A stretch of 11,511 nt of DNA, taken from the UHGV virus genome UHGV-0110285. One strand, 5' to 3'. Of this stretch, positions 135 through 11,511 are shown one piece after another (position 1 is the stretch's first letter; each line of letters starts with the position of its first letter). Under the pieces are notes generated by a model. That model was not told where the DNA came from, ran no database searches, and saw only the letters and a list, made by a program, of their open reading frames with translations. The stretch is from a virus. The translations under genes and the position numbers were made by a program.

Positions 135-1205
135 TTATTTGATTTCAATTTTGTCCCACTCCCTGCCTCTGTCATCACGATACTGTGATGCCATGGTGTC
201 CGACTTATGCCCGAGAAGATGTTGAGCAAACTTATCGCTTATCTGCTTCTCATAGAGTCTTGCAGACAAACTGCGCAACTCGTGAAAGGTAGGCGGATCC
301 CCTTCGAAGGAAAGACCTGATGCTTTTCGTGCGCGCATAAAATACCTTGATACTGTGCCGGATGAAAGCGGTTCGCGACGAGTAGATGCAATTATGGTTT
401 CTCCGCCAAGAATCTCTTTGCATTTATCAAGTGTTTCCTTCATTGATATTCCGAGAGCATCAACATGCAATGCTGTTGGGATGGCAATTTTTACGCCTGT
501 TTTGCTTTGCTCGACATAAAGATATCCATCTACGATATCAGACCACTTCATTTCGCATAAATCACCAACTCGTTGCCCGGTAACAACAGCCAGTTCCATT
601 GCAAGTCTGAGCCAACATGGTGATGATTCTGCTGCTTGATAAATTTTCAGGTATTCGTCAGCCGTAAGTCTTGATCTCCTTACCTCTGATTTTGCTGCGC
701 GAGTGGCAGCGACAGGGTTTGTTGTTATATGGCCTTCAGCTATTGCCTCTCGGAATGCATCGCTCAGTGTTGATCTGATTAACTTGGCTGACGCCGCCTT
801 GCCCTCGTCTATGTATCCATTGAGCATTGCCGCAATTTCTTTTGTGGTGATGTCTTCAAGTGGAGCATCAGGCAGACCCCTCCTTATTGCTTTAATTTTG
901 CTCATGTAATTTATGAGTGTCTTCTGCTTGATTCCTCTGCTGGCCAGGATTTTTTCGTAGCGATCAAGCCATGAATGTAACGTAACGGAATTATCACTGT
1001 TGATTCTCGCTGTCAGAGGCTTGTGTTTGTGTCCTGAAAATAACTCAATGTTGGCCTGTATGGCTTCAGTGATTGCGATTCGCCTGTCTCTGCCTAATCC
1101 AAACTCTTTACCCGTCCTTGGGTCCCTGTAGCAGTAATATCCATTGTTTCTTATATAAAGGTTAGGGGGTAAATCCCGGCGCTCATGACTTCGCCTTCTT
1201 CCCAT
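135..1205 (-). CDS. int: Lambda integrase Int (tyrosine recombinase), 356 aa
   Basis: ATG-initiated 356-aa ORF MGRRRSHERRDLPPNLYIRNNGYYCYRDPRTGKEFGLG.. recognised as lambda Int; 3' end abuts the P' arm. Confidence 0.97.
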   Translation of the reverse strand: MGRRRSHERRDLPPNLYIRNNGYYCYRDPRTGKEFGLGRDRRIAITEAIQANIELFSGHKHKPLTARINSDNSVTLHSWLDRYEKILASRGIKQKTLINYMSKIKAIRRGLPDAPLEDITTKEIAAMLNGYIDEGKAASAKLIRSTLSDAFREAIAEGHITTNPVAATRAAKSEVRRSRLTADEYLKIYQAAESSPCWLRLAMELAVVTGQRVGDLCEMKWSDIVDGYLYVEQSKTGVKIAIPTALHVDALGISMKETLDKCKEILGGETIIASTRREPLSSGTVSRYFMRARKASGLSFEGDPPTFHELRSLSARLYEKQISDKFAQHLLGHKSDTMASQYRDDRGREWDKIEIK

Positions 1206-1401
1206 TTCTGATCCTCTTCAAAAGGCTACCTGTTACTGGTCGATTTAAGTCAACCTTTACCGCTGATTCGTGGAACAGATACTCTCTTCCATCCTTAACC
1301 GGAGGAGGGAATATCCTGCACTCGCGTACCCATCGACGAACTGTTTCAAGGCTTCTTGGGCGTCGCTGGCGTGCGTTCCATTCCTGAAGTGTCAAGTACA
1401 T
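1183..1401 (-). CDS. xis: Lambda excisionase Xis, 72 aa
   Basis: 72-aa ORF MYLTLQEWNARQRRPRSLETVRRWVRECRIFPPPVKDGREYLF.. ; 23-nt overlap with int start as in lambda. Confidence 0.95.
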   Translation of the reverse strand: MYLTLQEWNARQRRPRSLETVRRWVRECRIFPPPVKDGREYLFHESAVKVDLNRPVTGSLLKRIRNGKKAKS

Positions 1402-1425
1402 CGCAAAGTCTCCGCAATTACACGC

Positions 1426-1450
1426 AAGAAAAAACCGCCATCAGGCGGCT
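1426..1450 (-). terminator. Putative intrinsic terminator on minus strand (hairpin CCGCC-TGAT-GGCGG followed by a T6 run) between orf55 and xis
   Basis: Plus strand reads AAAAAACCGCCATCAGGCGGCTT; the minus-strand RNA would form a GC hairpin followed by UUUUUU. Confidence 0.5.
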
Positions 1451-1608
1451 TGGTGTTCTTTCAGTTCTTCAATTCGAATATTGGTTACGTCTGCATGTGC
1501 TATCTGCGCCCATATCATCCAGTGGTCGTAGCAGTCGTTGATGTTCTCTGCTTCGATAACTCTGTTGAATGGCTCTCCATTCCATTCTCCTGTGACTCGG
1601 AAGTGCAT
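1441..1608 (-). CDS. Small hypothetical protein (lambda orf55-like), 55 aa; absent from the supplied ORF track because it is under 60 aa
   Basis: Manually translated minus-strand ORF MHFRVTGEWNGEPFNRVIEAENINDCYDHWMIWAQIAHADVTNIRIEELKEHQAA with GGAG 8 nt upstream of the ATG and in-frame stops immediately upstream. Confidence 0.55.
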   Translation of the reverse strand: MHFRVTGEWNGEPFNRVIEAENINDCYDHWMIWAQIAHADVTNIRIEELKEHQAA

Positions 1609-1696
1609 TTATCATCTCCATAAAACAAAACCCGCCGTAGCGAGTTCAGATAAAATAAATCCCCGCGAGTGCGAGGATTGTTATGTAATATTGGGT

Positions 1697-1978
1697 TTAA
1701 TCATCTATATGTTTTGTACAGAGAGGGCAAGTATCGTTTCCACCGTACTCGTGATAATAATTTTGCACGGTATCAGTCATTTCTCGCACATTGCAGAATG
1801 GGGATTTGTCTTCATTAGACTTATAAACCTTCATGGAATATTTGTATGCCGACTCTATATCTATACCTTCATCTACATAAACACCTTCGTGATGTCTGCA
1901 TGGAGACAAGACACCGGATCTGCACAACATTGATAACGCCCAATCTTTTTGCTCAGACTCTAACTCATTGATACTCAT
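1697..1978 (-). CDS. ea8.5: Lambda Ea8.5 (small zinc-binding protein, function unknown), 93 aa
   Basis: 93-aa ORF MSINELESEQKDW.. with Cys/His motifs (SPCRHHEG, CPLC); AAGGAG RBS upstream; position between xis and ea22 as in lambda. Confidence 0.85.
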   Translation of the reverse strand: MSINELESEQKDWALSMLCRSGVLSPCRHHEGVYVDEGIDIESAYKYSMKVYKSNEDKSPFCNVREMTDTVQNYYHEYGGNDTCPLCTKHIDD

Positions 1979-2169
1979 TTATAAACTCCTTGCAATGTAT
2001 GTCGTTTCAGCTAAACGGTATCAGCAATGTTTATGTAAAGAAACAGTAAGATAATACTCAACCCGATGTTTGAGTACGGTCATCATCTGACACTACAGAC
2101 TCTGGCATCGCTGTGAAGACGACGCGAAATTCAGCATTTTCACAAGCGTTATCTTTTACAAAACCGATC

Positions 2170-2718
2170 TCACTCTCCTTTGATGCGAATGCCAGCGTCA
2201 GACATCATATGCAGATACTCACCTGCATCCTGAACCCATTGACCTCCAACCCCGTAATAGCGATGCGTAATGATGTCGATAGTTACTAACGGGTCTTGTT
2301 CGATTAACTGCCGCAGAAACTCTTCCAGGTCACCAGTGCAGTGCTTGATAACAGGAGTCTTCCCAGGATGGCGAACAACAAGAAACTGGTTTCCGTCTTC
2401 ACGGACTTCGTTGCTTTCCAGTTTAGCAATACGCTTACTCCCATCCGAGATAACACCTTCGTAATACTCACGCTGCTCGTTGAGTTTTGATTTTGCTGTT
2501 TCAAGCTCAACACGCAGTTTCCCTACTGTTAGCGCAATATCCTCGTTCTCCTGGTCGCGGCGTTTGATGTATTGCTGGTTTCTTTCCCGTTCATCCAGCA
2601 GTTCCAGCACAATCGATGGTGTTACCAATTCATGGAAAAGGTCTGCGTCAAATCCCCAGTCGTCATGCATTGCCTGCTCTGCCGCTTCACGCAGTGCCTG
2701 AGAGTTAATTTCGCTCAC
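2170..2718 (-). CDS. ea22: Lambda Ea22, 182 aa (GTG start overlapping the orf73 stop as GTGA)
   Basis: 182-aa ORF MSEINSQALREAAEQAMHDDWGFDADLF.. ; size and position match lambda Ea22. Confidence 0.85.
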   Translation of the reverse strand: MSEINSQALREAAEQAMHDDWGFDADLFHELVTPSIVLELLDERERNQQYIKRRDQENEDIALTVGKLRVELETAKSKLNEQREYYEGVISDGSKRIAKLESNEVREDGNQFLVVRHPGKTPVIKHCTGDLEEFLRQLIEQDPLVTIDIITHRYYGVGGQWVQDAGEYLHMMSDAGIRIKGE

Positions 2719-2936
2719 TTCGAACCTCTCTGTTTACTGATAAGTTCCAGATCCTCCTGGCAACTTGCACAAGTCCGACAACCCTGAACGACCAGGCGTC
2801 TTCGTTCATCTATCGGATCGCCACACTCACAACAATGAGTGGCAGATATAGCCTGGTGGTTCAGGCGGCGCATTTTTATTGCTGTGTTGCGCTGTAATTC
2901 TTCAATTTCTGATGCTGAATCAATGATGTCTGCCAT
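2715..2936 (-). CDS. TraR/DksA-family C4 zinc-finger protein (lambda orf73-like), 73 aa
   Basis: 73-aa ORF with CCECGDPIDERRR...CRTCASCQ, the four-Cys zinc finger typical of TraR/DksA secondary-channel RNAP binders. Confidence 0.75.
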   Translation of the reverse strand: MADIIDSASEIEELQRNTAIKMRRLNHQAISATHCCECGDPIDERRRLVVQGCRTCASCQEDLELISKQRGSK

Positions 2937-2989
2937 CTTCCATTAATCCCTGAATTGTTGGTTAATACGCTTGAGGGTGAATGCGAATA

Positions 2990-3013
2990 ATAAAAAAGGA
3001 GCCTGTAGCTCCC
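2990..3013 (-). terminator. Putative intrinsic terminator on minus strand (GGGAGC-TACAG-GCTCC hairpin followed by a T6 run) between the orf61 region and orf73
   Basis: Plus strand AAAAAAGGAGCCTGTAGCTCCC; minus-strand RNA would be a hairpin plus UUUUUU. Confidence 0.45.
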
Positions 3014-3034
3014 TGATGATTTTGCTTTTCATGT

Positions 3035-3346
3035 TCATCGTTCCTTAAAGACGCCGTTTAACATGCCGATTGCCAGGCTTAAATGAGTCGGTGTGAATCC
3101 CATCAGCGTTACCGTTTCGCGGTGCTTCTTCAGTACGCTACGGCAAATGTCATCGACGTTTTTATCCGGAAACTGCTGTCTGGCTTTTTTGATTTCAGAA
3201 TTAGCCTGACGGGCAATGCTGCGAAGGGCGTTTTCCTGCTGAGGTGTCATTGAACAAGTCCCATGTCGGCAAGCATAAGCACACAGAATATGAAGCCCGC
3301 TGCCAGAAAAATGCATTCCGTGGTTGTCATACCTGGTCTCTCTCAT
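3035..3346 (-). CDS. Hypothetical protein in the lambda orf61 position; open for 103 codons here
   Basis: ATG start overlaps the orf63 stop by 20 nt (lambda-like arrangement); the frame stays open to 3035. Confidence 0.55.
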   Translation of the reverse strand: MRETRYDNHGMHFSGSGLHILCAYACRHGTCSMTPQQENALRSIARQANSEIKKARQQFPDKNVDDICRSVLKKHRETVTLMGFTPTHLSLAIGMLNGVFKER

Positions 3347-3518
3347 CTGCTTCTGCTTTCGCCACCATCATTTCCAGCTTTTGTGAAAGGGATGCGGCTA
3401 ACGTATGAAATTCTTCGTCTGTTTCTACTGGTATTGGCACAAACCTGACTCCAATTTGAGCGAGGCTATGTGCCATCTCGATACTCGTTCTTAACTCAAC
3501 GGGAGATGCTTTGTGCAT
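3327..3518 (-). CDS. Lambda orf63-like hypothetical protein, 63 aa
   Basis: 63-aa [29 protein letters not shown].. in the expected position and with the expected overlaps. Confidence 0.7.
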   Translation of the reverse strand: MHKASPVELRTSIEMAHSLAQIGVRFVPIPVETDEEFHTLAASLSQKLEMMVAKAEADERDQV

Positions 3519-3673
3519 ACAGCTCCCCGTTTATTATTTATCTCCTCAGCCAGCCGCTGTGCTTTCAGGGGATTTCGGATAACAGAAAGGCCGGGAAATA
3601 CCCAGCCTCGCTTCGTAACGGAGTAGACGAAAGTGATCGTGCCTACGCGGATATTATCGTGAGGATGTTTCAT
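3491..3673 (-). CDS. Lambda orf60a-like hypothetical protein, 60 aa (ATG at 3673 overlapping the exo stop as ATGA; the track ORF starts two codons earlier at 3679)
   Basis: [29 protein letters not shown].. ; translational-coupling overlap with exo. Confidence 0.65.
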
Positions 3674-4350
3674 CGCCATTGCTCCCCAAATACAAAACCA
3701 ATTTCAGCCAGTGCCTCGTCCATTTTTTCGATGAACTCCGGCACCATCTCGTCAAAACTCGCCATGTAATTTTCATCCCGCTCAACCACGACATAATGCA
3801 GGCCTTCACGCTTCATTCGTGGGTCATAGTTGGCAAAGTACCAGGCATCTTTTCGCGTCACCCACATGCTGTACTGCACCTGGGCCATGTAAGCTGACTT
3901 TATGGCCTCGAAACCACCGAGCCGGAATTTCATGAAATCCCGGGAGGTAAACGGGCATTTCAGTTCAAGGCCGTTGCCGTCACTGCATAAACCATCGGGA
4001 GAGCAGGCGGTGCGCATACTTTCGTCGCGATAGATGATCGGGGATTCAGTAACATTCACGCCGGAAGTAAACTCAAACAGGGCTCTGGCGTCGTTCTCGT
4101 ACTGTTTTCCCCAGGCCAGCGCCTTAGCATTAACTTCCGGAGCCACACCGGTGCAAACCTCAGCCAGCAGGGTGTGGAAGTAGGACATTTTCATGTCAGG
4201 CCACTTCTTTCCTGAGCGGGGCTTTGCTATCACGTTGTGAACTTCTGAAGCGGTGATGACGCCGAGCCGTAATTTGTGCCATGCATCATCCCCCTGTTCG
4301 ACAGCTCTCACGTCGATCCCGGTACGCTGCAGGATAATGTCCGGTGTCAT
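3670..4350 (-). CDS. exo: Lambda exonuclease (Red alpha), 226 aa
   Basis: 226-aa [46 protein letters not shown].. recognised as lambda Exo; ATGA overlap with the bet stop. Confidence 0.96.
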
Positions 4351-5132
4351 GCTGCCACCTTCTGCTCAGTGGCTTTCTGTTTCAGGAATCCAAGAGCTTT
4401 CACTGCTTCGGCCTGTGTCAGTTCTGACGATGCGCGAATGTCGCGGCGAAATATCTGGGAACAGAGCGGCAATAAGTCGTCATCCCATGTTTTATCCAGG
4501 GCGATCAGCAGAGTGTTAATCTCCTGCATGGTTTCATCGTTAACCGGAGTGATGTCGCGTTCTGGCTGACGTTCTGCAGTGTATGCAGTATTTTCGACAA
4601 TGCGCTCGGCTTCATCCTTGTCATAGATACCAGCAAATCCGAAGGCCAGACGGGCACACTGAATCATGGCTTTATGCCGTAGCATCCGTTTGGGATGCGA
4701 CTGCCACGGTCCGGTGATTTCTCTGCCTTCGCGGGTTTTGAATGGTTCGCGGCGGCATTCATCCATCCACTCGGTAACGCAGATCGGATGATTACGGTCC
4801 TTGCGGTAAATCCGGCATGTACATGATTCATTGTCCTGCTCAAAGTCCATGCCATCAAACTGCTGGTTTTCATTGATGATACGGGACCAGCCATCAACGC
4901 CCACCACCGGAACGATGCCGTTCTGCTTGTCAGGGAAGGCGTAAATTTCTTTCGTCCACGGATTAAGGCCGTACTGGTTGGCGACGATCAACAATGCGAT
5001 GAACTGCGCATCGCTGGCATCACCTTTAAATGCCGTCTGGCGAAGAGTGGTGATCAGTTCCTGTGGGTCGACAGAATCCATGCCGACGCGTTCAGCCAGC
5101 TTCCCAGCCAGCGTTGCGAGTGCTGTACTCAT
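4347..5132 (-). CDS. bet: Lambda Beta single-strand annealing protein (Red beta), 261 aa
   Basis: 261-aa [62 protein letters not shown].. recognised as lambda Bet. Confidence 0.96.
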
Positions 5133-5137
5133 CCGTT

Positions 5138-5434
5138 TTATACCTCTGAATCAATATCAACCTGGTGGTGAGCAATGGTTTCAACCATGTACCGGATGTG
5201 TTCTGCCATGCGCTCCTGAAACTCAACATCGTCATCAAACGCACGGGTAATGGCTTTTTTGCTGGCCCCGTGGCGTTGTAAATGATCGATGCAGAGTGAT
5301 TCAAACAGGTGCTGGGGCAGGCCTTTTTCCATGTCGTCTGCCAGTTCTGCCTCTTTCTCTTCACGGGCGATCTGCTGGTAGTGACGCGCCCAGCTCTGAG
5401 CCTCAAGACGATCCTGAATGTAATAAGCGTTCAT
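5138..5434 (-). CDS. gam: Lambda Gam (RecBCD inhibitor), short 98-aa form only
   Basis: 98-aa [63 protein letters not shown].. ; an in-frame stop lies 18 codons upstream of the ATG, so the longer 138-aa form is not encoded. Confidence 0.9.
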
Positions 5435-5488
5435 GGCTGAACTCCTGAAAATGGCTGTGAAAATATCGCCCGCGAAATGCCAGGCTGA

Positions 5489-5602
5489 TTAGGAAAACAG
5501 GAAAGGGGATTAGTGATTCAGGCCGTTACCGCGTCCGTCGAGAAAAACTTCCACGAGCAAATCACGGGTATCTGGCTGAAAGAGGGGGTTATTAAGGCGT
5601 GA
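5489..5602 (+). pseudogene. 3' remnant of the gene normally upstream of rusA (product unknown), truncated at the gam/nin junction
   Basis: Open frame ..[27 protein letters not shown] ends with a TGA that overlaps the rusA GTG start (GTGA coupling) but has no start codon; its upstream end runs into gam-derived sequence. Confidence 0.4.
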
Positions 5603-5961
5603 ATACCTACAGTATCACATTACCCTGGCCTCCGAGCAATAATCGCTATTACCGCCATAATCGCGGGCGCACGCACATCAGCGCAGAAGGGCAGGCATAC
5701 CGCGATAACGTCACCCGAATCATTAAAAACGCAATGCTGGATATCGGCCTGGCTATGCCAGTGAAAATCCGTATTGAGTGCCACATGCCGGATCGCCGTC
5801 GCCGTGACCTGGATAATCTGCAAAAAGCCGCTTTTGACGCACTCACCAAAGCAGGTTTCTGGCTGGATGATGCTCAGGTCGTTGATTACCGCGTTGTGAA
5901 GATGCCGGTTGTCAAAGGTGGAAAGCTGGAACTGACCATCACTGAACTGGGAGATGAATGA
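5599..5961 (+). CDS. rusA: RusA Holliday-junction resolvase, 120 aa (GTG start)
   Basis: 120-aa [40 protein letters not shown].. recognised as the RusA family found in nin regions of lambdoid prophages (DLP12, phage 82). Confidence 0.9.
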
Positions 5962-6098
5962 TGTTTGAGTTTTATATGGCAGAACTTCTTCGCCACCGCT
6001 GGATGCGCCTGCGCTTATATCGTTTCCCCAGTTCTGTTTTGACCGATTACCGAATACTGAGGAATTACGCCAAAACCCTGACAGGAGCAGGAGTATGA
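5958..6098 (+). CDS. ylcG: YlcG-like small protein, 46 aa; absent from the supplied ORF track because it is under 60 aa
   Basis: Manually translated [49 protein letters not shown] starting 4 nt before the rusA stop; 46 codons, matching the size and position of DLP12 ylcG between rusA and Q. Confidence 0.55.
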
Positions 6099-6183
6099 AG
6101 TCAGAGATAACAATCAACTAATACTGTTTTGTTGATTTTTGCTTGTAATTGGCGTTCTGGTCTGATTTTTGTGGAGTAAGTTG

Positions 6184-6567
6184 ATGCGTGATATTCAGAT
6201 GGTTCTTGAGCGTTGGGGAGCGTGGGCGGCTAATAATCATGAAGATGTGACCTGGTCGTCCATTGCCGCCGGTTTTAAGGGATTAATTACTTCAAAAGTA
6301 AAATCTCGCCCGCAATGTTGTGACGATGACGCGATGATTATTTGCGGGTGCATGGCCCGTCTGAAAAAGAACAACAGCGATTTGCACGATTTATTAGTAG
6401 ATTATTATGTAGTCGGTATGACATTCATGTCACTGGCAGGTAAGCATTGCTGCTCTGATGGTTATATCGGGAAAAGGTTACAGAAGGCTGAGGGTATAAT
6501 TGAAGGGATGTTAATGGCATTAGATATCCGGTTAGAGATGGATATCGTTGTTAATAACTCTAATTAA
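6184..6567 (+). CDS. quuD: Late-gene antiterminator Q (QuuD-like, non-lambda Q type), 127 aa from the ATG at 6184 (the track ORF begins at a TTG at 6169)
   Basis: [24 protein letters not shown].. with Cys-rich stretch [16 protein letters not shown]; GGAG 8 nt upstream of the ATG; sits between rusA/ylcG and the lysis genes. Confidence 0.8.
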
Positions 6568-6600
6568 TACGCCAATTATTTACTAAAAGTTATTAAAAAT

Positions 6601-6619
6601 GGGGCGTTGAAACGCCCCC
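6601..6619 (-). terminator. Intrinsic terminator for minus-strand (porin) transcripts: GGGGCGT-TGAA-ACGCCCC followed by AUUUUU on the minus strand
   Basis: Perfect 7-8 bp GC stem read directly; the T-run is on the minus-strand side. Confidence 0.6.
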
Positions 6620-6658
6620 AAAAATAAAGGGTAATATATAACAGAAGGTTTGTATAGT

Positions 6659-6706
6659 TAGAAGCAAGGTTGTGCTTCTAAAGGAAGTGGCTTGAGGGAG
6701 CCACTT
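6659..6706. other. Two back-to-back stem-loops with identical geometry (8-bp stem, 6-nt loop): TAGAAGCA-AGGTTG-TGCTTCTA at 6659-6680 and AAGTGGCT-TGAGGG-AGCCACTT at 6685-6706
   Basis: Perfect inverted repeats read directly; neither has a flanking T-run. Confidence 0.6.
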
Positions 6707-6710
6707 ATAT

Positions 6711-6745
6711 GTTGGGGAGGCAAAGCCTCCCACAACATATCTTTT
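6711..6745 (+). terminator. Intrinsic terminator for plus-strand transcripts leaving Q: GTTG(G)GGGAGGC-AAA-GCCTCCC(A)CAAC followed by UAUCUUUU
   Basis: 11-bp stem with one bulge plus a downstream U-run on the plus strand. Confidence 0.55.
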
Positions 6746-6755
6746 AGTAATCAAA

Positions 6756-7838
6756 TTAGAACTGGTAAACCATACCTACAGCAACGATATCATCGGTAGC
6801 AACGCCAGATGCTTTCGTGAAATCGCTCTTATCAATCAGGTTGATTTTGTAGTCAACAAAAGTGGACATATTTTTGTTGAAGTAATAGGTTGCACCTACA
6901 TCAACATATTCAACCAGGTCCTGATCACCCCAAACACCCAAGTCTTTTCCTTTAGAATGCAGGTAAGCAACGGATGGACGCAGGCCGAAGTCGAACTGAT
7001 ATTGTGCAACAGCTTCGAAGTTTTGTGCTTTGTTGGCAATATGGTTATTACCAAAAACAGTCATGTTCTGGGTTTCAGAATAGGTGGTGGCCAGATAGAT
7101 GTTGTTCGCATCATATTTCAGACCAGCTGCCCATACTTCAGCATTTTGACCAGAAGCATTCAGACCGTTGTTACCGTAGATAACCTGATTATTAGTGCGA
7201 TCAGATTTAGCATAGGTTGCACCCACGCCGAATCCTTCATACTCATAAGTAGTTGAGAAACCGAAACCATCGCCATTAGCTTCAGTTACTTCATTTCGGT
7301 CATTTTTGCCCTGATACTGAGCTGCAAAGTTCAGGCCATCAACCAGACCAAAGAAGTCGTTGTTACGATAAGTTGCAACACCTGTGGTGCGACCAGTCAT
7401 GAATACATCTGTTTGGGTCCAGGTATCGCCACCGAATTCTGGCAGAACGTCAGTCCACGCACCGATGTCGTATGCTACACCGTAGTTACGGCCGTAATCG
7501 ATGGAGCCGTAGTCACCGAATTTCAGGCCAGCGAAGGCAAGACGGGTTTTATCTTTGGAGGAACCTTGAGATTCAGCGCGGTTGCCTTTGAATTCATATT
7601 CCCACTGACCGAAACCAGTCAGTTGATCGTTGATTTGGGTTTCACCTTTGAAGCCAAGACGGGCATAAGTAGTATCACCATCATCTGCATCATTAGAGGA
7701 GAAGTAGTGTTTAGCATTAACTTTCCCGTACAGATCCAGCTTGTTACTGTCTTTATTATAAATTTCAGCTGCCTGAGCAGACATCGCCATCAGTACTGAT
7801 GCAGCTACAGCAGAAATTGCCACTGTTAATTTTTTCAT
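6756..7838 (-). CDS. nmpC: Phage-borne general porin of the OmpC/OmpF superfamily (Lc/NmpC/OmpD-like), 360 aa, apparently intact
   Basis: Signal peptide [23 protein letters not shown] then AEIYNK..; 16-strand porin-like sequence ending in a C-terminal Phe (..VGMVYQF); convergent with Q, the arrangement known from PA-2 lc and DLP12 nmpC. Confidence 0.9.
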
Positions 7839-8060
7839 CGTGAGCCCTTTTTTTTGAACTATTATTAAAAAATGATGTCACTGCGCGATAAATATTCATC
7901 TAATCAATATGATTATTTCAAGATGTAAGTTTTGGTTTCTCGTTTGATTTGTGAAGTAGATCTCTATTTTTATCTGAACTTTTTTCTATCGAATCCTATT
8001 CATGGCTCTTGGCTGAATAAAAATAAATCTATTAGCCAATTTATATTAACGGTTGTTATT
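7839..8060 (-). promoter_or_regulatory. AT-rich 5' control region of the porin gene (promoter not resolved)
   Basis: About 220 bp of AT-rich non-coding sequence immediately upstream of the porin ATG on the minus strand. Confidence 0.3.
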
Positions 8061-8266
8061 TATAAGTGCTCTATGATTTGAAGGTTCAATTTAAATCGGC
8101 TAAAAATAACACTAGAAATTATTTGTTGGTTATTTGTTGAGATTTGCTTATGTATTTGTAGTGGTGTTTTCAATACTCGGTAGCATTCTCGCAAATATCA
8201 TTTAGTGGTTTACGTACGTAAAAAATTGGTTATGCTGTTAAGAGTGGTTACTTCGTCACACAGCTT

Positions 8267-8300
8267 AAACCCGCCGTCGAGCGGGTTTTTCCATTTTTTG
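8267..8300 (+). terminator. Intrinsic terminator on the plus strand about 115 nt upstream of the holin (tR'-like): AAACCCGC-CGTCGA-GCGGGTTT followed by UUCCAUUUUUU
   Basis: Perfect 8-bp stem plus a U-rich tail on the plus strand. Confidence 0.6.
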
Positions 8301-8411
8301 AGTCTCGATATTAGCTGATAACCCAATACCTGAGTTATTCACTGACTCCGAGTCTGTTACGTTTCGTAGTATTCCCTCAATTTACACCCGCTTTGTCTGC
8401 GAGGTGGGGTT

Positions 8412-8627
8412 ATGAAATCCATGGATAAGTTAACAACGGGTGTCGCCTATGGCACCTCAGCAGGTAGTGCCGGGTACTGGTTTTTACAGCTGCTAGATAA
8501 AGTCACGCCCTCACAGTGGGCGGCAATTGGAGTGCTGGGTAGCCTGGTATTTGGCCTGCTGACGTACCTGACAAACCTTTATTTCAAGATTAAAGAAGAT
8601 AAGCGCAAGGCTGCGAGAGGTGAATAA
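8412..8627 (+). CDS. essD: Class II holin/pinholin of the phage 21 S type, 71 aa, with dual-start motif MKSM
   Basis: [71 protein letters not shown]: two transmembrane segments, charged C-terminus, Met1/Met4 starts; GAGGTGG RBS. Confidence 0.9.
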
Positions 8628-9124
8628 TGCCTCCATCATTACGAAAAGCCGTTGCTGCTGCTATTGGTGGCGGAGCAATTGCTATAGCATCAGTGTTAAT
8701 TACTGGCCCAAGTGGTAACGATGGTCTGGAAGGTGTCAGCTACATACCATACAAAGATATTGTTGGTGTATGGACTGTATGTCACGGGCATACAGGAAAA
8801 GACATCATGCTCGGTAAAACGTATACCAAAGCAGAATGCAAAGCCCTCCTGAATAAAGACCTTGCCACGGTCGCCAGACAAATTAACCCGTACATCAAAG
8901 TCGATATACCGGAAACAACGCGCGGTGCTCTTTACTCGTTCGTTTACAACGTGGGTGCTGGAAATTTCAGAACATCGACGCTTCTTCGCAAAATAAACCA
9001 GGGCGATATCAAAGGCGCATGTGATCAGCTACGTCGCTGGACATATGCTGGCGGTAAGCAATGGAAAGGTCTCATGACTCGTCGTGAGGTTGAGCGTGAA
9101 ATTTGTTTGTGGGGTCAGCAATGA
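8627..9124 (+). CDS. rrrD: SAR (signal-anchor-release) endolysin, lysozyme of the phage 21 R type, 165 aa
   Basis: N-terminal Gly/Ala-rich weakly hydrophobic segment [20 protein letters not shown] followed by a lysozyme-like domain; ATG overlaps the holin TAA (TAATG). Confidence 0.92.
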
Positions 9125-9579
9125 ACAGAGTAACCGCGATTATCTCCGCTCTGGTTATCTGCATCATCGTCTGCCTGTCATGGGCTGTTAATCATTACCG
9201 TGATAACGCAATCGCCTACAAAGAGCAGCGCGATAACAAGGCCAGTGAACTGGAGAAGGCGAACGCCACCATCGCTGACATGCGGAAGCGTCAACGTGAT
9301 GTAGCAGAACTCGACGCAAGATACACAAAGGAGCTTGCTGATGCTAACGCGACTATCGAAAGTCTCCGTGCTGATGTTTCTGCTGGGCGTAAGCGCCTGC
9401 AAGTCGCCGCCACCTGTGCAAAGTCAACGACCGGAGCCAGCGGCATGGGCGATGGAGAAAGCCCAAGACTTACAGCAGATGCTGAACTCAATTATTACCG
9501 TCTCCGAAGTGGAATCGACAAGATAACCGCGCAGGTTAACTACCTGCAGGAATACATCAGGACGCAATGCCTGAAATAA
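9121..9579 (+). CDS. rzpD: Rz spanin inner-membrane subunit (i-spanin), 152 aa from the ATG at 9121 overlapping the endolysin stop (the track ORF starts at 9103)
   Basis: [28 protein letters not shown].. : N-terminal transmembrane segment then a coiled-coil-like periplasmic domain; position after the endolysin. Confidence 0.85.
9341..9526 (+). CDS. rzoD: Rz1 outer-membrane lipoprotein spanin (o-spanin) embedded in the +1 frame of Rz, 61 aa from the ATG at 9341 (the track ORF starts at a TTG at 9335)
   Basis: [20 protein letters not shown]|[16 protein letters not shown].. : lipobox ending in Cys, proline-rich mature part; AAGGAG 9 nt upstream; fully nested in Rz. Confidence 0.8.
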
Positions 9580-9610
9580 TTTTTTTGCAAATCACAAAGT
9601 CCATTTAATG

Positions 9611-9636
9611 AGCCTCGCGATGCGGGGCTTTTTTTA
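9611..9636 (+). terminator. Intrinsic terminator downstream of Rz: AGCCUCGC-GAU-GCGGGGCU followed by UUUUUUU
   Basis: GC-rich 8-bp stem (one G-U pair) and a T7 run on the plus strand, 32 nt after the Rz stop. Confidence 0.7.
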
Positions 9637-9784
9637 CATCTGAATTTCACAGCGCATCTCACGCGCATATTACATCACCCGAGCCTTTCAGAAAGTTGAG
9701 CCTGAGAACTGCCGTATATGGTGGCGACCATCTCGGGGCGGCTTTTCTGTGAGACAGGCTCACTTTCTAAAAGGTAAAGACGCT

Positions 9785-10273
9785 ATGAACCAATTAGAAG
9801 AAAAGCTTCAAAGAATGATTTCCTTATACAAGGAAGATAACTGCCAAAAAGTTCCTGAAAACATCGCAGAGTTAATGGAATTGGCAAGTGAATTTTCTGG
9901 CATGCTTAAGTCGTCAGGTGTTCGGTCAGCGTTCTTTGTTGAAATGCTGATGCACGGCGGACTTATGGCAACAATGAGACGTGTAATGGAAGACCAGAGA
10001 AAAGAACCTCCTCAGGTATACGTTTTGTCATCGAAGAAAACTGGGCTAACCAAAATTGGGTATTCATCCAACATTCCACAACGCATCAAATCGCTTGGCA
10101 ACTCTGGACCAGACTGCTTGAAGCTTGAGTGCCTGATCCCTGGTGGAAGAGAAACTGAAAACATGCTTCATCGCAAATTTGCCGCAAAGAGAAAGCACGG
10201 TGAATGGTTCGCCCTGTCCAAGGATGACATTGAGGGATTGAAATCTGTAGCGATTACTTCTGATGGCTATTAA
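9785..10273 (+). CDS. Hypothetical protein with a C-terminal T5orf172/GIY-YIG-like domain, 162 aa from the ATG at 9785 (the track ORF starts at a GTG at 9749); sits where lambda carries bor
   Basis: C-terminal half QVYVLSSKKTGLTKIGYSSNIPQRIKSLGNSGPDCLKLECLIPGGRETENMLHRKFAAKRKHGEWFALSKDDI fits the T5orf172 pattern (VYVL..KIG...R..L...E..LH..F...R..GEWF); AGGTAAAGA RBS before the ATG; N-terminal 75 aa helical with no recognised similarity. Confidence 0.6.
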   Translation: MNQLEEKLQRMISLYKEDNCQKVPENIAELMELASEFSGMLKSSGVRSAFFVEMLMHGGLMATMRRVMEDQRKEPPQVYVLSSKKTGLTKIGYSSNIPQRIKSLGNSGPDCLKLECLIPGGRETENMLHRKFAAKRKHGEWFALSKDDIEGLKSVAITSDGY

Positions 10274-10310
10274 TGCTTGTTTAGAGCAATTTTCATAACA
10301 ACTCTTCATT

Positions 10311-10345
10311 ACAAAGCCCATCTACTGGTGGGCTTGATAATGAAA
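10311..10345. repeat. Copy 1 of an imperfect direct repeat (ACAAAGCCCATCTACTGGTGGGCTTGATAATG); also folds as a hairpin AAGCCCA/TGGGCTT
   Basis: Aligned by eye with 10667-10705; shares the ACAAAGCC, CTAC, GTGG and TTGATAATG blocks. Confidence 0.45.
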
Positions 10346-10587
10346 CCGTGATTTACATCCCCACAATCCGGGTATGTAAAAGATAGTTCAGGCGAGAACG
10401 GATTTAACTAAATCTGTGCGCCACCAGTTAACGGCAGTACCACGAAACAACCCAAGCCAGTAAGTGGGGAAATAACACCGGCAGCCACTGAAAGATGAAC
10501 CTCCTGCCTTATGGCAAAAAAGATTCTTTGTGGTGGCGGACTGATGGAAAGACATCCTAATTTCAGCCAAACATTGAAGGAGTTGTT

Positions 10588-10659
10588 ATGTCAGCAGAAG
10601 GTTTCAATAACCCATCAAAATTCCGGGATGAGTGGGATAGCAGCGTAAAGAGTAAGTGA
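10588..10659 (+). CDS. Possible 23-codon small ORF (MSAEGFNNPSKFRDEWDSSVKSK) with a strong Shine-Dalgarno; may be a micro-protein or the 5' remnant of a lost gene
   Basis: AAGGAG 5 nt upstream of the ATG; short; lies between the two direct-repeat copies. Confidence 0.25.
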   Translation: MSAEGFNNPSKFRDEWDSSVKSK

Positions 10660-10666
10660 TGCCATC

Positions 10667-10705
10667 ACAAAAGCCATTCCCTACAGAGTGGCTTTGATAA
10701 TGGCT
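10667..10705. repeat. Copy 2 of the imperfect direct repeat (ACAAAAGCCATTCCCTACAGAGTGGCTTTGATAATG); hairpin AAGCCA/TGGCTT
   Basis: Aligned by eye with 10311-10345. Confidence 0.45.
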
Positions 10706-10951
10706 TATACCCTACACGGGATAACTTAACTGATATCCCTTTTAAAGGATAAAGGTATTCAAGCCTGACACATCATGCGCTGTATCGTCGCCGTATTCCC
10801 GTATTAACAGAGACCGTAGCCCGACGGGGAACTCCTTCTGCGAGAGTGTGCGGGAATAATCAAAAACGATGCACACCGGGGTTACCGGGTACACATATTT
10901 CATCATGCCAGCGAGTCCGGTTCTGGCACGGAAGAAACCGGACGTTATGAT

Positions 10952-11362
10952 TTAGTGCGGAAATATTTGTGTAGTGTTCTGAATGTTCTCAGTAAAGAGT
11001 AATGAATTATCAAAGGTATAGTAATACCTTTTGTTTTCGTGGATATTTGTAATCCATCTGAAAACCCCTGCTGTAGCAAGATTTTTCCTGTATTCGTAAA
11101 ATGATAACTCTCCTGATTTGAATCCTTTTAAGGTGGCTTCTATAAGGCATTTATTTTTTGAAAATCTTACATTTACAACCTTACCCTGTCCTTTTATTAA
11201 AACCGTATTATCGTTTTCAAGAACAAGATGAATATTCTCTGTGGCTAAATAGTAAATGTAATGTGAGACATTGTGACGTTTTAGTTCAGAATAAAACCAG
11301 TGATAGTTTAAATTATTTCGCACTTTATCGAATATTTGTTTAAAAATGGCAACCTGAGCCAT
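10952..11362 (-). CDS. AT-rich hypothetical protein, 136 aa from the ATG at 11362 (the track ORF starts at 11377); tentatively YbcV-like
   Basis: [38 protein letters not shown].. ; GGAAGG RBS 7 nt upstream of the second ATG; 136 aa equals the recalled size of DLP12 YbcV, which lies in the same place and orientation relative to the lysis genes; strongly AT-biased codon usage. Confidence 0.45.
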
Positions 11363-11511
11363 TGTAGTACCTTCCATGTGATATGAGGGGCGTAGTCTGC
11401 ACGATTATCTAAATTGCTTCAATCTGGTCTGATCTGTTTTCTGAGCAATTCAGTAATTGATCCTACCCACGTAATATGGACACAGGCCTAAGCGAGGTTC
11501 TTGTTTTCAAA

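Follow-up and report, generated by a model that had tools for sequence, protein, structure and literature searches.

What does a stand-alone nuclease-fold gene do at the position that phage lambda and the DLP12 prophage give to the moron bor? The question is raised by virus genome UHGV-0110285, which we analysed as a stretch of 11,511 nucleotides (nt), hereafter the window, and in which an open reading frame (ORF) of 162 amino acids (aa) at 9785–10273 follows the lysis genes. The initial annotation had assigned this ORF to the T5orf172/GIY-YIG proteins and read it as a plausible lysogenic-conversion moron that excludes other phages, or alternatively as a homing-endonuclease-like gene. We find that the nuclease gene sits as cargo in a late-operon cassette that is conserved among temperate phages of enterobacteria and in which unrelated genes alternate with the junction falling exactly at the start codon. 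The order of the cassette is intrinsic terminator, small hairpin, ~90-nt Shine-Dalgarno hairpin, ATG, cargo and 3′ hairpin. The most interesting result is the leader, which lies just outside the coordinates given in that annotation and is a widespread structured element without an entry in Rfam 15, a shared front end behind which DNA-targeting genes can be exchanged.

The features of the cassette, in window positions, are as follows.

9610–9636, plus strand: intrinsic terminator, with a 9-bp stem (9610–9630), 6 G-C pairs and a T run.
9652–9666, plus strand: leader hairpin P1, GCGC-AUCUCAC-GCGC, 4 bp, of which 2 pairs show compensatory changes in other phages.
9684–9774, plus strand: long leader hairpin, in which CCUUU (9684–9688) pairs with AAAGG (9770–9774), the Shine-Dalgarno sequence.
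9785–10000, plus strand: residues 1–72, the N-domain, an acidic three-helix bundle (pI 5.3).
10001–10270, plus strand: residues 73–162, the C-domain, a basic T5orf172/MUG113 domain of GIY-YIG fold (pI 9.4).
10274–10305, plus strand: cargo-specific 3′ untranslated stretch, 100% identical to HK106.
10305–10344 (core 10314–10335), plus strand: 3′ hairpin of the slot, with a variable loop, stable (z −4.6).
10345–10775, no strand assigned: rest of the replacement segment, of which at least 10345–10440 is common to HK620 and HK106.

The terminator lies ~40 nt upstream of the leader and is kept in most cargo alleles, and its equivalent is annotated as such in HK106, phi80 and HK639. From the terminator through ATGAA the window is 86–100% identical to phages that carry another gene, namely phi80 and HK639 (rha) and HK620 (KilA-N). 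Beyond the cargo, the alleles become homologous again from 10306, where the 3′ hairpin begins to match, and five cargo types in all are followed by this hairpin. It lacks a T tract on the plus strand and we do not call it a terminator. Terminator, leader and 3′ hairpin thus belong to the conserved slot and not to the nuclease gene. Of the two flanking terminators first credited to the gene, the upstream one is real and the downstream one survives as a hairpin only, and both are common to all alleles rather than its own. Comparison of the window with HK106 finds the cargo and its 32-nt 3′ tail 99.8–100% identical, the leader 85% and the 3′ flank 93%; because cargo identity exceeds flank identity, the cargo has moved recently between backgrounds, with breakpoints at its edges. 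It is sporadically present at a mosaic boundary near the terminase genes, and identity drops sharply at its ends.

The expectation that different cargo genes alternate at this site is borne out by a census, in which IMG/VR was scanned for a 21-nt leader motif and the loci already collected were added, giving 129 leader instances; cargo was assigned by Pfam or by N-terminal similarity to a Pfam-tested member. Rha, KilA-N, P22_AR_N, HNH and nuclease genes are all found behind the same leader, and in every instance the ATG of the cargo ORF lies 126–133 nt after the leader start.

Rha, with or without ORF11CD3: 63 of 129 instances.
KilA-N, with or without ORF11CD3 or P63C: 40 of 129.
P22_AR_N plus ORF11CD3: 10 of 129.
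T5orf172, the nuclease studied here: 10 of 129.
HNH_3, with or without AP2: 6 of 129.

A covariance-model search adds phi80 gp49, a 242-aa protein of no clear family encoded behind a second leader copy. At least 8 unrelated cargo genes are preceded by the same leader, and six different cargo N-termini stand behind one identical 131-nt leader. The leader occurs in 906 of 5426 complete Escherichia coli genomes, at no more than 4 copies per genome, and an evenly spaced sample of 60 E. coli records contains ~46 Rha, 9 nuclease and 1 KilA-N cargo. Tandem cassettes occur as three KilA-N-type units in a row (L047, 3373–5448, minus strand), as antirepressor-N plus Rha cassettes in a Stx2a phage (L005, leaders 1157–1292 and 2523–2657), as rha plus gp49 in phi80 (L002, leaders 3071–3201 and 4665–4778) and as a further pair (L056, leaders 3387–3517 and 5379–5493). 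Cassettes are also found elsewhere in the late region, for example behind the tail genes of a Klebsiella phage. The second codon of the cargo is mostly AAx (MN... or MK...), with conserved sequence reaching two bases into the ORF (ATGAA), which could reflect a translation-initiation preference or the remnant of a recombination junction.

The leader occupies the ~135 nt from terminator to ATG and consists of the small hairpin followed by the ~90-nt hairpin that pairs the Shine-Dalgarno sequence; the latter also contains a conserved 6-nt 3′ bulge, GUGAGA (9749–9754), an AGAA/UUCU helix, a GCCG/CGGC helix and an apical hairpin. Folding of the window leader gives a z-score of −3.9. We folded 12 variants separately (E. 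coli A1–A3, Klebsiella-type B1–B3, Providencia, the leader of homologue P0014, the second copies of phi80, L047 and L056, and HK022) and find the same minimum-energy architecture in 11 of them. HK022 is the one that differs; its strongly diverged leader (L135, 2251–2390, 51 bits) precedes an unannotated 242-aa KilA-N-like gene. In the Rha variant of Stx phages, the lower stem has become a perfect duplex of ~22 bp through changes that match between the two arms.

Pairing is likewise conserved across alignments. In the MAFFT alignment, 92.1% of cells are paired, compared to 35–49% when the partners are slid by 1–3 columns (34–49% over both alignments used here); compensatory changes are found in 11 pairs, and the covariation score was reached by 0 of 500 shuffles. 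RNAalifold on this alignment recovers the inner helices only, because Klebsiella-type leaders are out of register in the lower stem; the structure was supplied by hand and the variants were also folded singly. A model-based alignment of 41 distinct sequences, in which four Klebsiella-type pairs are still out of register, has compensatory changes in 19 of 33 pairs and 91.9% of cells paired, and each of the five Shine-Dalgarno pairs forms in at least 37 of the 41 sequences. Non-Watson-Crick cells include 28 G.U and 18 A.C, 13 of the latter from one misaligned lineage. The leader has no match in Rfam 15 at gathering thresholds, where chance-level hits only (E 0.85 and 2.5) fall outside 9684–9774, and literal leader strings had no match in the literature searched. 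Nothing useful emerged from the literature on rha and IHF (integration host factor) or on genes placed between lysis and terminase modules. The covariance model detects no leader in K-12 DLP12 or beside the distant homologues described below. In the conserved downstream flank, a Proteo-phage-1 RNA hit at 10451–10486 (plus strand; 19.8 bits versus a gathering threshold of 42, E 0.85) is probably chance.

A reading of the structure also helps to fix the start of the cargo ORF, which ends at TAA 10271–10273. A program-made ORF list begins it at GTG 9749 (174 aa); ATG 9785, the start first annotated, is nevertheless supported as the true one because homology between loci with different cargo stops exactly at ATGAA (9785–9789), because GTG 9749 sits in the conserved bulge of the leader hairpin and because an AAGG Shine-Dalgarno sequence ends 10 nt 5′ of the ATG. 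The 162-aa ORF on the lysis-gene strand is thus real as originally drawn. The equivalent of GTG 9749, upstream of the Shine-Dalgarno sequence, is annotated as the start of rha in phi80 (L002, 3163) and HK639, and 174-aa calls of the cargo protein (P0003, P0004) also begin there; these N-terminal extensions are probably annotation errors.

When would such a gene be expressed? A consensus scan finds no sigma-70 promoter on the plus strand in 9300–11000 upstream of the nuclease gene, the interval from terminator to ATG included, and the phi80 record describes rha, which stands behind the same leader, with the note 'DNA synthesis inhibition in IHF- hosts'. The lack of a promoter, the upstream terminator, the buried Shine-Dalgarno sequence and the phi80 note together point to Q-dependent expression in the late lytic phase. 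Only late transcription that Q has made resistant to terminators would reach the nuclease gene, which would therefore be read in lytic growth but not in a lysogen, and translated at a restrained or gated level. This is the opposite of what is expected for a lysogenic-conversion moron; that part of the initial annotation does not fit a gene with no detectable promoter, a buried Shine-Dalgarno sequence and a leader in common with rha. The Shine-Dalgarno hairpin would throttle or gate translation of the cargo until the long, nearly perfect helix is opened or cleaved, and RNase III is a candidate for this step because of the length of the duplex. Throttled translation would make a toxic DNA-targeting cargo tolerable. 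In the prophage of the window, the late operon may be silent because the immunity and replication regions have been lost.

The protein itself consists of two domains, and its assignment to the T5orf172/GIY-YIG proteins with a nuclease-like fold is supported by Pfam and by structure prediction. Residues 78–151 match MUG113 (PF13455) at 6e-15 and 56 bits (curated cut-off 22.3) and T5orf172 (PF10544) at 2.8e-10 and 41 bits (curated cut-off 20), while the canonical GIY-YIG family PF01541 is not significant (0.19; residues 77–104 on profile positions 3–30). AlphaFold2 (AF2) models, with predicted local distance difference test (pLDDT) scores of 87.4 and 81.6, give the C-domain a three-stranded sheet with flanking helices in the beta-beta-alpha-beta-alpha order of the GIY-YIG fold, and PD-T4-3 is among the structural neighbours (PDB 9u75). 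A Foldseek search of the PDB with the full-length model gave no match at E ≤ 0.001, and a profile search of PDB sequences and NCBIfam gave none. The N-terminal half, described earlier as helical with no recognisable similarity, is indeed a three-helix bundle without a Pfam match, resembling generic helical bundles only; in a profile search of 5.8 billion proteins it was joined to T5orf172 and to no other effector domain. Neither a transmembrane segment nor a DUF4041 domain is present.

Conservation is concentrated in the core of the C-domain. Across 14 sequences, down to 20% identity, Y79, K90, I91, G92, R100, E125, L128, H129, E140, W141 and F142 are invariant and the N-domain is barely conserved, as expected when an active enzyme carries an accessory domain that is free to vary; the family is under purifying selection. 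The 'GIY' tyrosine of strand 1 is Y79 and the catalytic arginine of helix 1 is R100, both invariant, and the 'YIG' tyrosine of strand 2 is absent, its motif reading K90-I91-G92 throughout the family. Two invariant glutamates, E125 and E140, could bind metal (cf. I-TevI E75 and Odn E180), and by motif reading E125, in 'RETEN' after strand 3, would correspond to the glutamate of I-TevI 'ERENF' and to Odn E180. In ICP1 Odn the T5orf172 domain is a proven nuclease that cuts DNA, an activity abolished by the E180A substitution (PMC8263062). Some copies appear to be decaying, given an E140 to Gly change (HGGWF) in P0002, a close homologue (98% identical) that represents a 114-member Salmonella cluster, an ORF cut to 24 aa in L044, the fragments P0010, P0012 and P0015, and N-terminal fragments among several database entries.

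As a sequence the cargo gene is evidently not new. PGAP names it 'GIY-YIG nuclease family protein' (WP_016245257.1), and gp64 of coliphage HK106, a member of phrog_4284 of unknown function, is the same gene. The whole 821-nt nuclease locus is found in 80 of 5426 complete E. coli genomes, with the ORF intact and 100% identical among the complete genomes listed. Close relatives are few, forming 16 clusters from E. coli, Salmonella and Klebsiella. Among 1.84 billion representatives, a profile search matched 38,349 proteins, nearly all through the C-domain, and only ~12 of these are ~160-aa proteins with the same two-domain layout. The protein is a nuclease of the known T5orf172 kind whose N-domain occurs in this ~160-aa family alone. 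P0014, a homologue of 49% identity, is likewise encoded after lysis and before terminase genes, behind a diverged leader.

The distant homologues point to a partnership. In 5 of 5 distant ~160-aa homologues with readable contigs, the gene adjoins a Bro-N, KilA-N or Rha gene, with a 4-nt overlap in 3: it lies directly 3′ of a KilA-N gene in a Vibrio P2-like prophage and beside a Bro-N gene in a metagenomic phage, and overlaps a Rha gene in phage L140 and a Bro-N gene in two further prophages. T5orf172 fusions with Bro-N and KilA-N have been described (PMC8096241, citing Iyer et al. 2002), and in ICP1 the odn locus holds pairs of rha-like or Bro-N genes (PMC8263062). Fusion, operon coupling and allelic replacement in the window together link the T5orf172 nuclease to the Bro-N, KilA-N and Rha proteins. 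The L140 genes form an island in the tail cluster (2538–5918) that consists of Arc (minus strand), Arc, Bro-N, a 72-aa ORF, Rha, the T5orf172 homologue and an Imm_superinfect/SHOCT gene, a layout similar to the P22 immI antirepressor region.

The neighbourhood in the window confirms that this is the bor slot, as first annotated. The lysis genes essD, rrrD and the Rz-like gene span 8412–9579, and the last of them borders the cassette.

9103–9579, plus strand: Rz-type spanin gene, which ends the lysis set and adjoins the slot on its upstream side.
9335–9526: Rz1 lipoprotein ORF, embedded within the Rz-type gene.

Positions 5728–9390 (rusA to rzpD) and 10776–11439 (the ybcV region) align to K-12 DLP12, and 9390–10775 (1385 nt) stands in for the rzpD 3′ end and borD; the 3′ end of the Rz-type gene, from ~9390, already differs from rzpD. 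The prophage is defective, with lambda-type int, xis, exo, bet and gam (minus strand, 135–5434) abutting rusA, ylcG, Q, a porin gene and the lysis genes (5599–9579). Immunity, N, O/P and nin genes are absent from the window, which from 5728 on is 92–97% identical to DLP12. The porin gene, between Q and the holin gene (6756–7838, minus strand), encodes an intact 360-aa OmpC/NmpC-type protein; its K-12 counterpart, nmpC, is interrupted by IS5. Between the cassette and a DUF1398 (ybcV-like) gene at 10952–11377 (minus strand), noncoding sequence contains a terminator-like hairpin with a T run at 10500–10521 (minus strand), which could end transcription of that gene, as it lies downstream of it on the minus strand.

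We favour the reading, at a probability of roughly one half, that the protein is a DNA endonuclease made from the late operon under throttled translation, and that it serves either conflict with other phages or satellites, or homing. It would act as an endonuclease on rival DNA during lytic growth, with the N-terminal bundle dimerising the protein or docking it to a partner. The target could be a co-infecting or co-resident phage with another allele, which would confer a homing-like advantage; alternatively it may be a satellite or prophage, as with ICP1 Odn. The protein would then be a free-standing catalytic counterpart of the DNA-binding Bro-N, KilA-N and Rha proteins. Homing endonucleases of the T5orf172 and HNH-AP2 kinds are reported to gather close to terminase genes and at exchange boundaries (PMC10448857), and both kinds of gene occur in this pre-terminase slot. 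The homing-like alternative of the initial annotation is compatible with the data, but the protein lacks the DNA-binding domains of characterised T5orf172 homing endonucleases (PMC10448857). A more ambitious version of our reading, which we hold tentatively and think rather unlikely to be right in full, is that the terminator and hairpin leader form an undescribed cis-regulatory RNA that doubles as a universal, start-codon-precise docking point for swappable or tandem toxic cassettes, and that the protein is the catalytic half of a split Bro-N/KilA-N/Rha plus T5orf172 system directed, like Odn, against rival mobile elements.

Several points weigh against late-lytic conflict or homing. The protein has no recognisable sequence-specific DNA-binding domain and its N-domain is acidic (pI 5.3), when the characterised T5orf172 homing endonucleases carry zinc-finger DNA-binding domains (PMC10448857). 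No co-conversion tract is seen 3′ of the cargo in the comparison of HK106 with the window, and no Bro-N, KilA-N or Rha partner adjoins the nuclease gene in the window. The mapping of E125 to the catalytic glutamate of I-TevI is a reading of the motif, and an hhalign comparison of the family to I-TevI gave no usable alignment. The promoter scan was a simple consensus scan, which a weak or non-sigma-70 promoter could escape; compensatory changes in the leader trace to a few lineages only, and the model-based alignment (A8) is fitted to the model. Nuclease activity, target and timing are all properties that we infer from the sequence of the cargo protein and its surroundings.

The best-surviving alternative, which we regard as unlikely, is that the protein is a single-gene exclusion or abortive-infection nuclease expressed from the prophage to shield its host from other phages. 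Defence is a known role of GIY-YIG nucleases: PD-T4-3 is a structural neighbour, and SNIPE requires its GIY-YIG domain for defence (PMC13190303), although the protein studied here lacks the transmembrane segment and DUF4041 of SNIPE. The only PADLOC match, a weak one to candidate system PDC-S57 (7e-6, PADLOC-DB 2.0), covers the nuclease domain alone (residues 73–146 versus profile positions 3–83 of 212), and membership of a known defence system is not supported by such a domain-level hit. The homologue in the Arc/Bro-N/Rha island, beside an Imm_superinfect gene, would suit a defence role, as would the slot itself, at which lambda and DLP12 place the moron bor. Expression in the lysogen is difficult to reconcile with the lack of a promoter from the upstream terminator to the ATG, with a Shine-Dalgarno sequence sequestered by a conserved hairpin, and with a leader common to rha, which according to the phi80 record acts on DNA synthesis in IHF- hosts. 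The immunity and early region is absent and the rusA-Q-lysis block is DLP12-like, from which we infer that the late operon may be untranscribed. We consider late-lytic conflict or homing more likely than defence expressed in a lysogen.

It is still less probable that the protein is a non-cleaving DNA-binding regulator, a domesticated nuclease fold that is the functional equal of the Rha, KilA-N and antirepressor-like alleles with which it alternates. This idea draws on the slot in common with Rha, KilA-N and P22_AR_N proteins, and on the history of T5orf172, which was first predicted to bind DNA from its co-occurrence with Bro-N and KilA-N (PMC8096241). E140G in P0002, the representative of the largest Salmonella cluster, would also fit. 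However, Y79, R100, E125 and H129 are invariant down to 20% identity, as expected for catalysis, and the T5orf172 domain of Odn is catalytically active (PMC8263062). The precedent of CapR, a repressor domesticated from homing-endonuclease parts, is an imperfect one, as CapR retained the DNA-binding domain and not the T5orf172 domain (PMC8096241).

We think it improbable that in this strain the gene is merely carried along, silent and at present without function, by a prophage in decay. The direct junction of int-xis-exo-bet-gam to rusA-Q-porin-lysis, the missing immunity and replication genes and the cut copies elsewhere (24 aa in L044; P0010, P0012, P0015) are what decay would produce, but the ORF is intact and 100% identical among the complete genomes listed, it is 99.8% identical to a gene of the viable phage HK106, and the family is under purifying selection.

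Very improbable, finally, is that the leader works as DNA, as an attC-like hairpin recombination site or a protein operator, with cassettes moving by site-specific recombination and no RNA gate. Structure conserved above sequence, a conserved extra-helical bulge, tandem cassettes (three in L047, two each in the Stx2 phage and phi80), cassettes at other genome positions such as after Klebsiella phage tail genes, and sharp junctions at cargo boundaries could all be accommodated by such a site. The helix nevertheless always includes the Shine-Dalgarno sequence, with the ATG at a fixed distance, 126–133 nt from the leader start; G.U exceeds A.C on the sense strand; the cassettes have no dedicated recombinase; and the 5′ junction is explained by homologous recombination within the final ~60 nt of the leader, which are invariant. 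A packaging role like that of the HK97 gp74 HNH protein was rejected, as the nuclease gene is found alongside terminase modules of either type, HK97 or lambda, and HK106 still has an HNH gene of its own beside it.

The cassette resembles several known systems in part. It shares with ICP1 Odn (Gp88) and the ICP1-type T5orf172 homing endonucleases a small phage protein with the T5orf172 domain at one end, conserved Arg and Glu residues, and variable loci beside terminase or structural genes at exchange boundaries (PMC8263062, PMC10448857). The ICP1 proteins differ in carrying recognisable DNA-binding domains (RepA_N, or CapR/DUF723/DUF4397 zinc fingers) where we find an unmatched acidic three-helix bundle. 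The protein described here is also shorter (162 aa), and its gene, one of several alleles of a cassette, follows a structured leader that is conserved. The Bro-N/KilA-N-T5orf172 fusions of phages and large DNA viruses represent the same domain partnership (PMC8096241), whereas here the nuclease is unfused, replaces a Rha or KilA-N allele and stands alone. The catalytic domains of I-TevI and Slx1 are only 10–19% identical, and the second motif is KIG rather than YIG. SNIPE and PD-T4-3 match no further than the domain (PMC13190303; PDB 9u75).

The rha genes of phi80 and its lambdoid relatives (PF09669) have in common with the nuclease gene the post-Rz slot, the terminator, the leader up to the ATG and sometimes the 3′ hairpin, but encode an unrelated protein, a DNA-binding domain with or without ORF11CD3 instead of a nuclease fold. 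Lambda bor and DLP12 borD occupy the same position relative to Rz and ybcV; bor lies on the opposite strand, encodes a lipoprotein and is expressed from the prophage, in contrast to the nuclease gene, which is co-oriented with the late operon and has no promoter that we could find. Phage mRNA leaders processed by RNase III are known from the lambda N leader and the T7 R sites, and some leaders sequester the Shine-Dalgarno sequence. Like these, the leader described here is a long hairpin, imperfectly paired, within a polycistronic phage mRNA, and it hides the ribosome-binding site of the gene that follows; it differs in belonging to another sequence family, without an Rfam 15 match, and in being reused before many unrelated genes.

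The interest of the nuclease gene comes from this setting and not from the gene alone. The leader is present in about one-sixth of complete E. coli genomes and in many Salmonella, Klebsiella, Enterobacter and Stx-converting phages, and if it gates toxic late genes it would be a common, uncatalogued regulatory RNA of medically relevant prophages, Stx phages included. The fusion, adjacency and replacement that connect T5orf172 to Bro-N, KilA-N and Rha provide a testable handle on abundant and poorly understood phage protein families, and the alternating cargo offers a natural system in which to test whether nuclease genes drive exchange at lambdoid mosaic boundaries.

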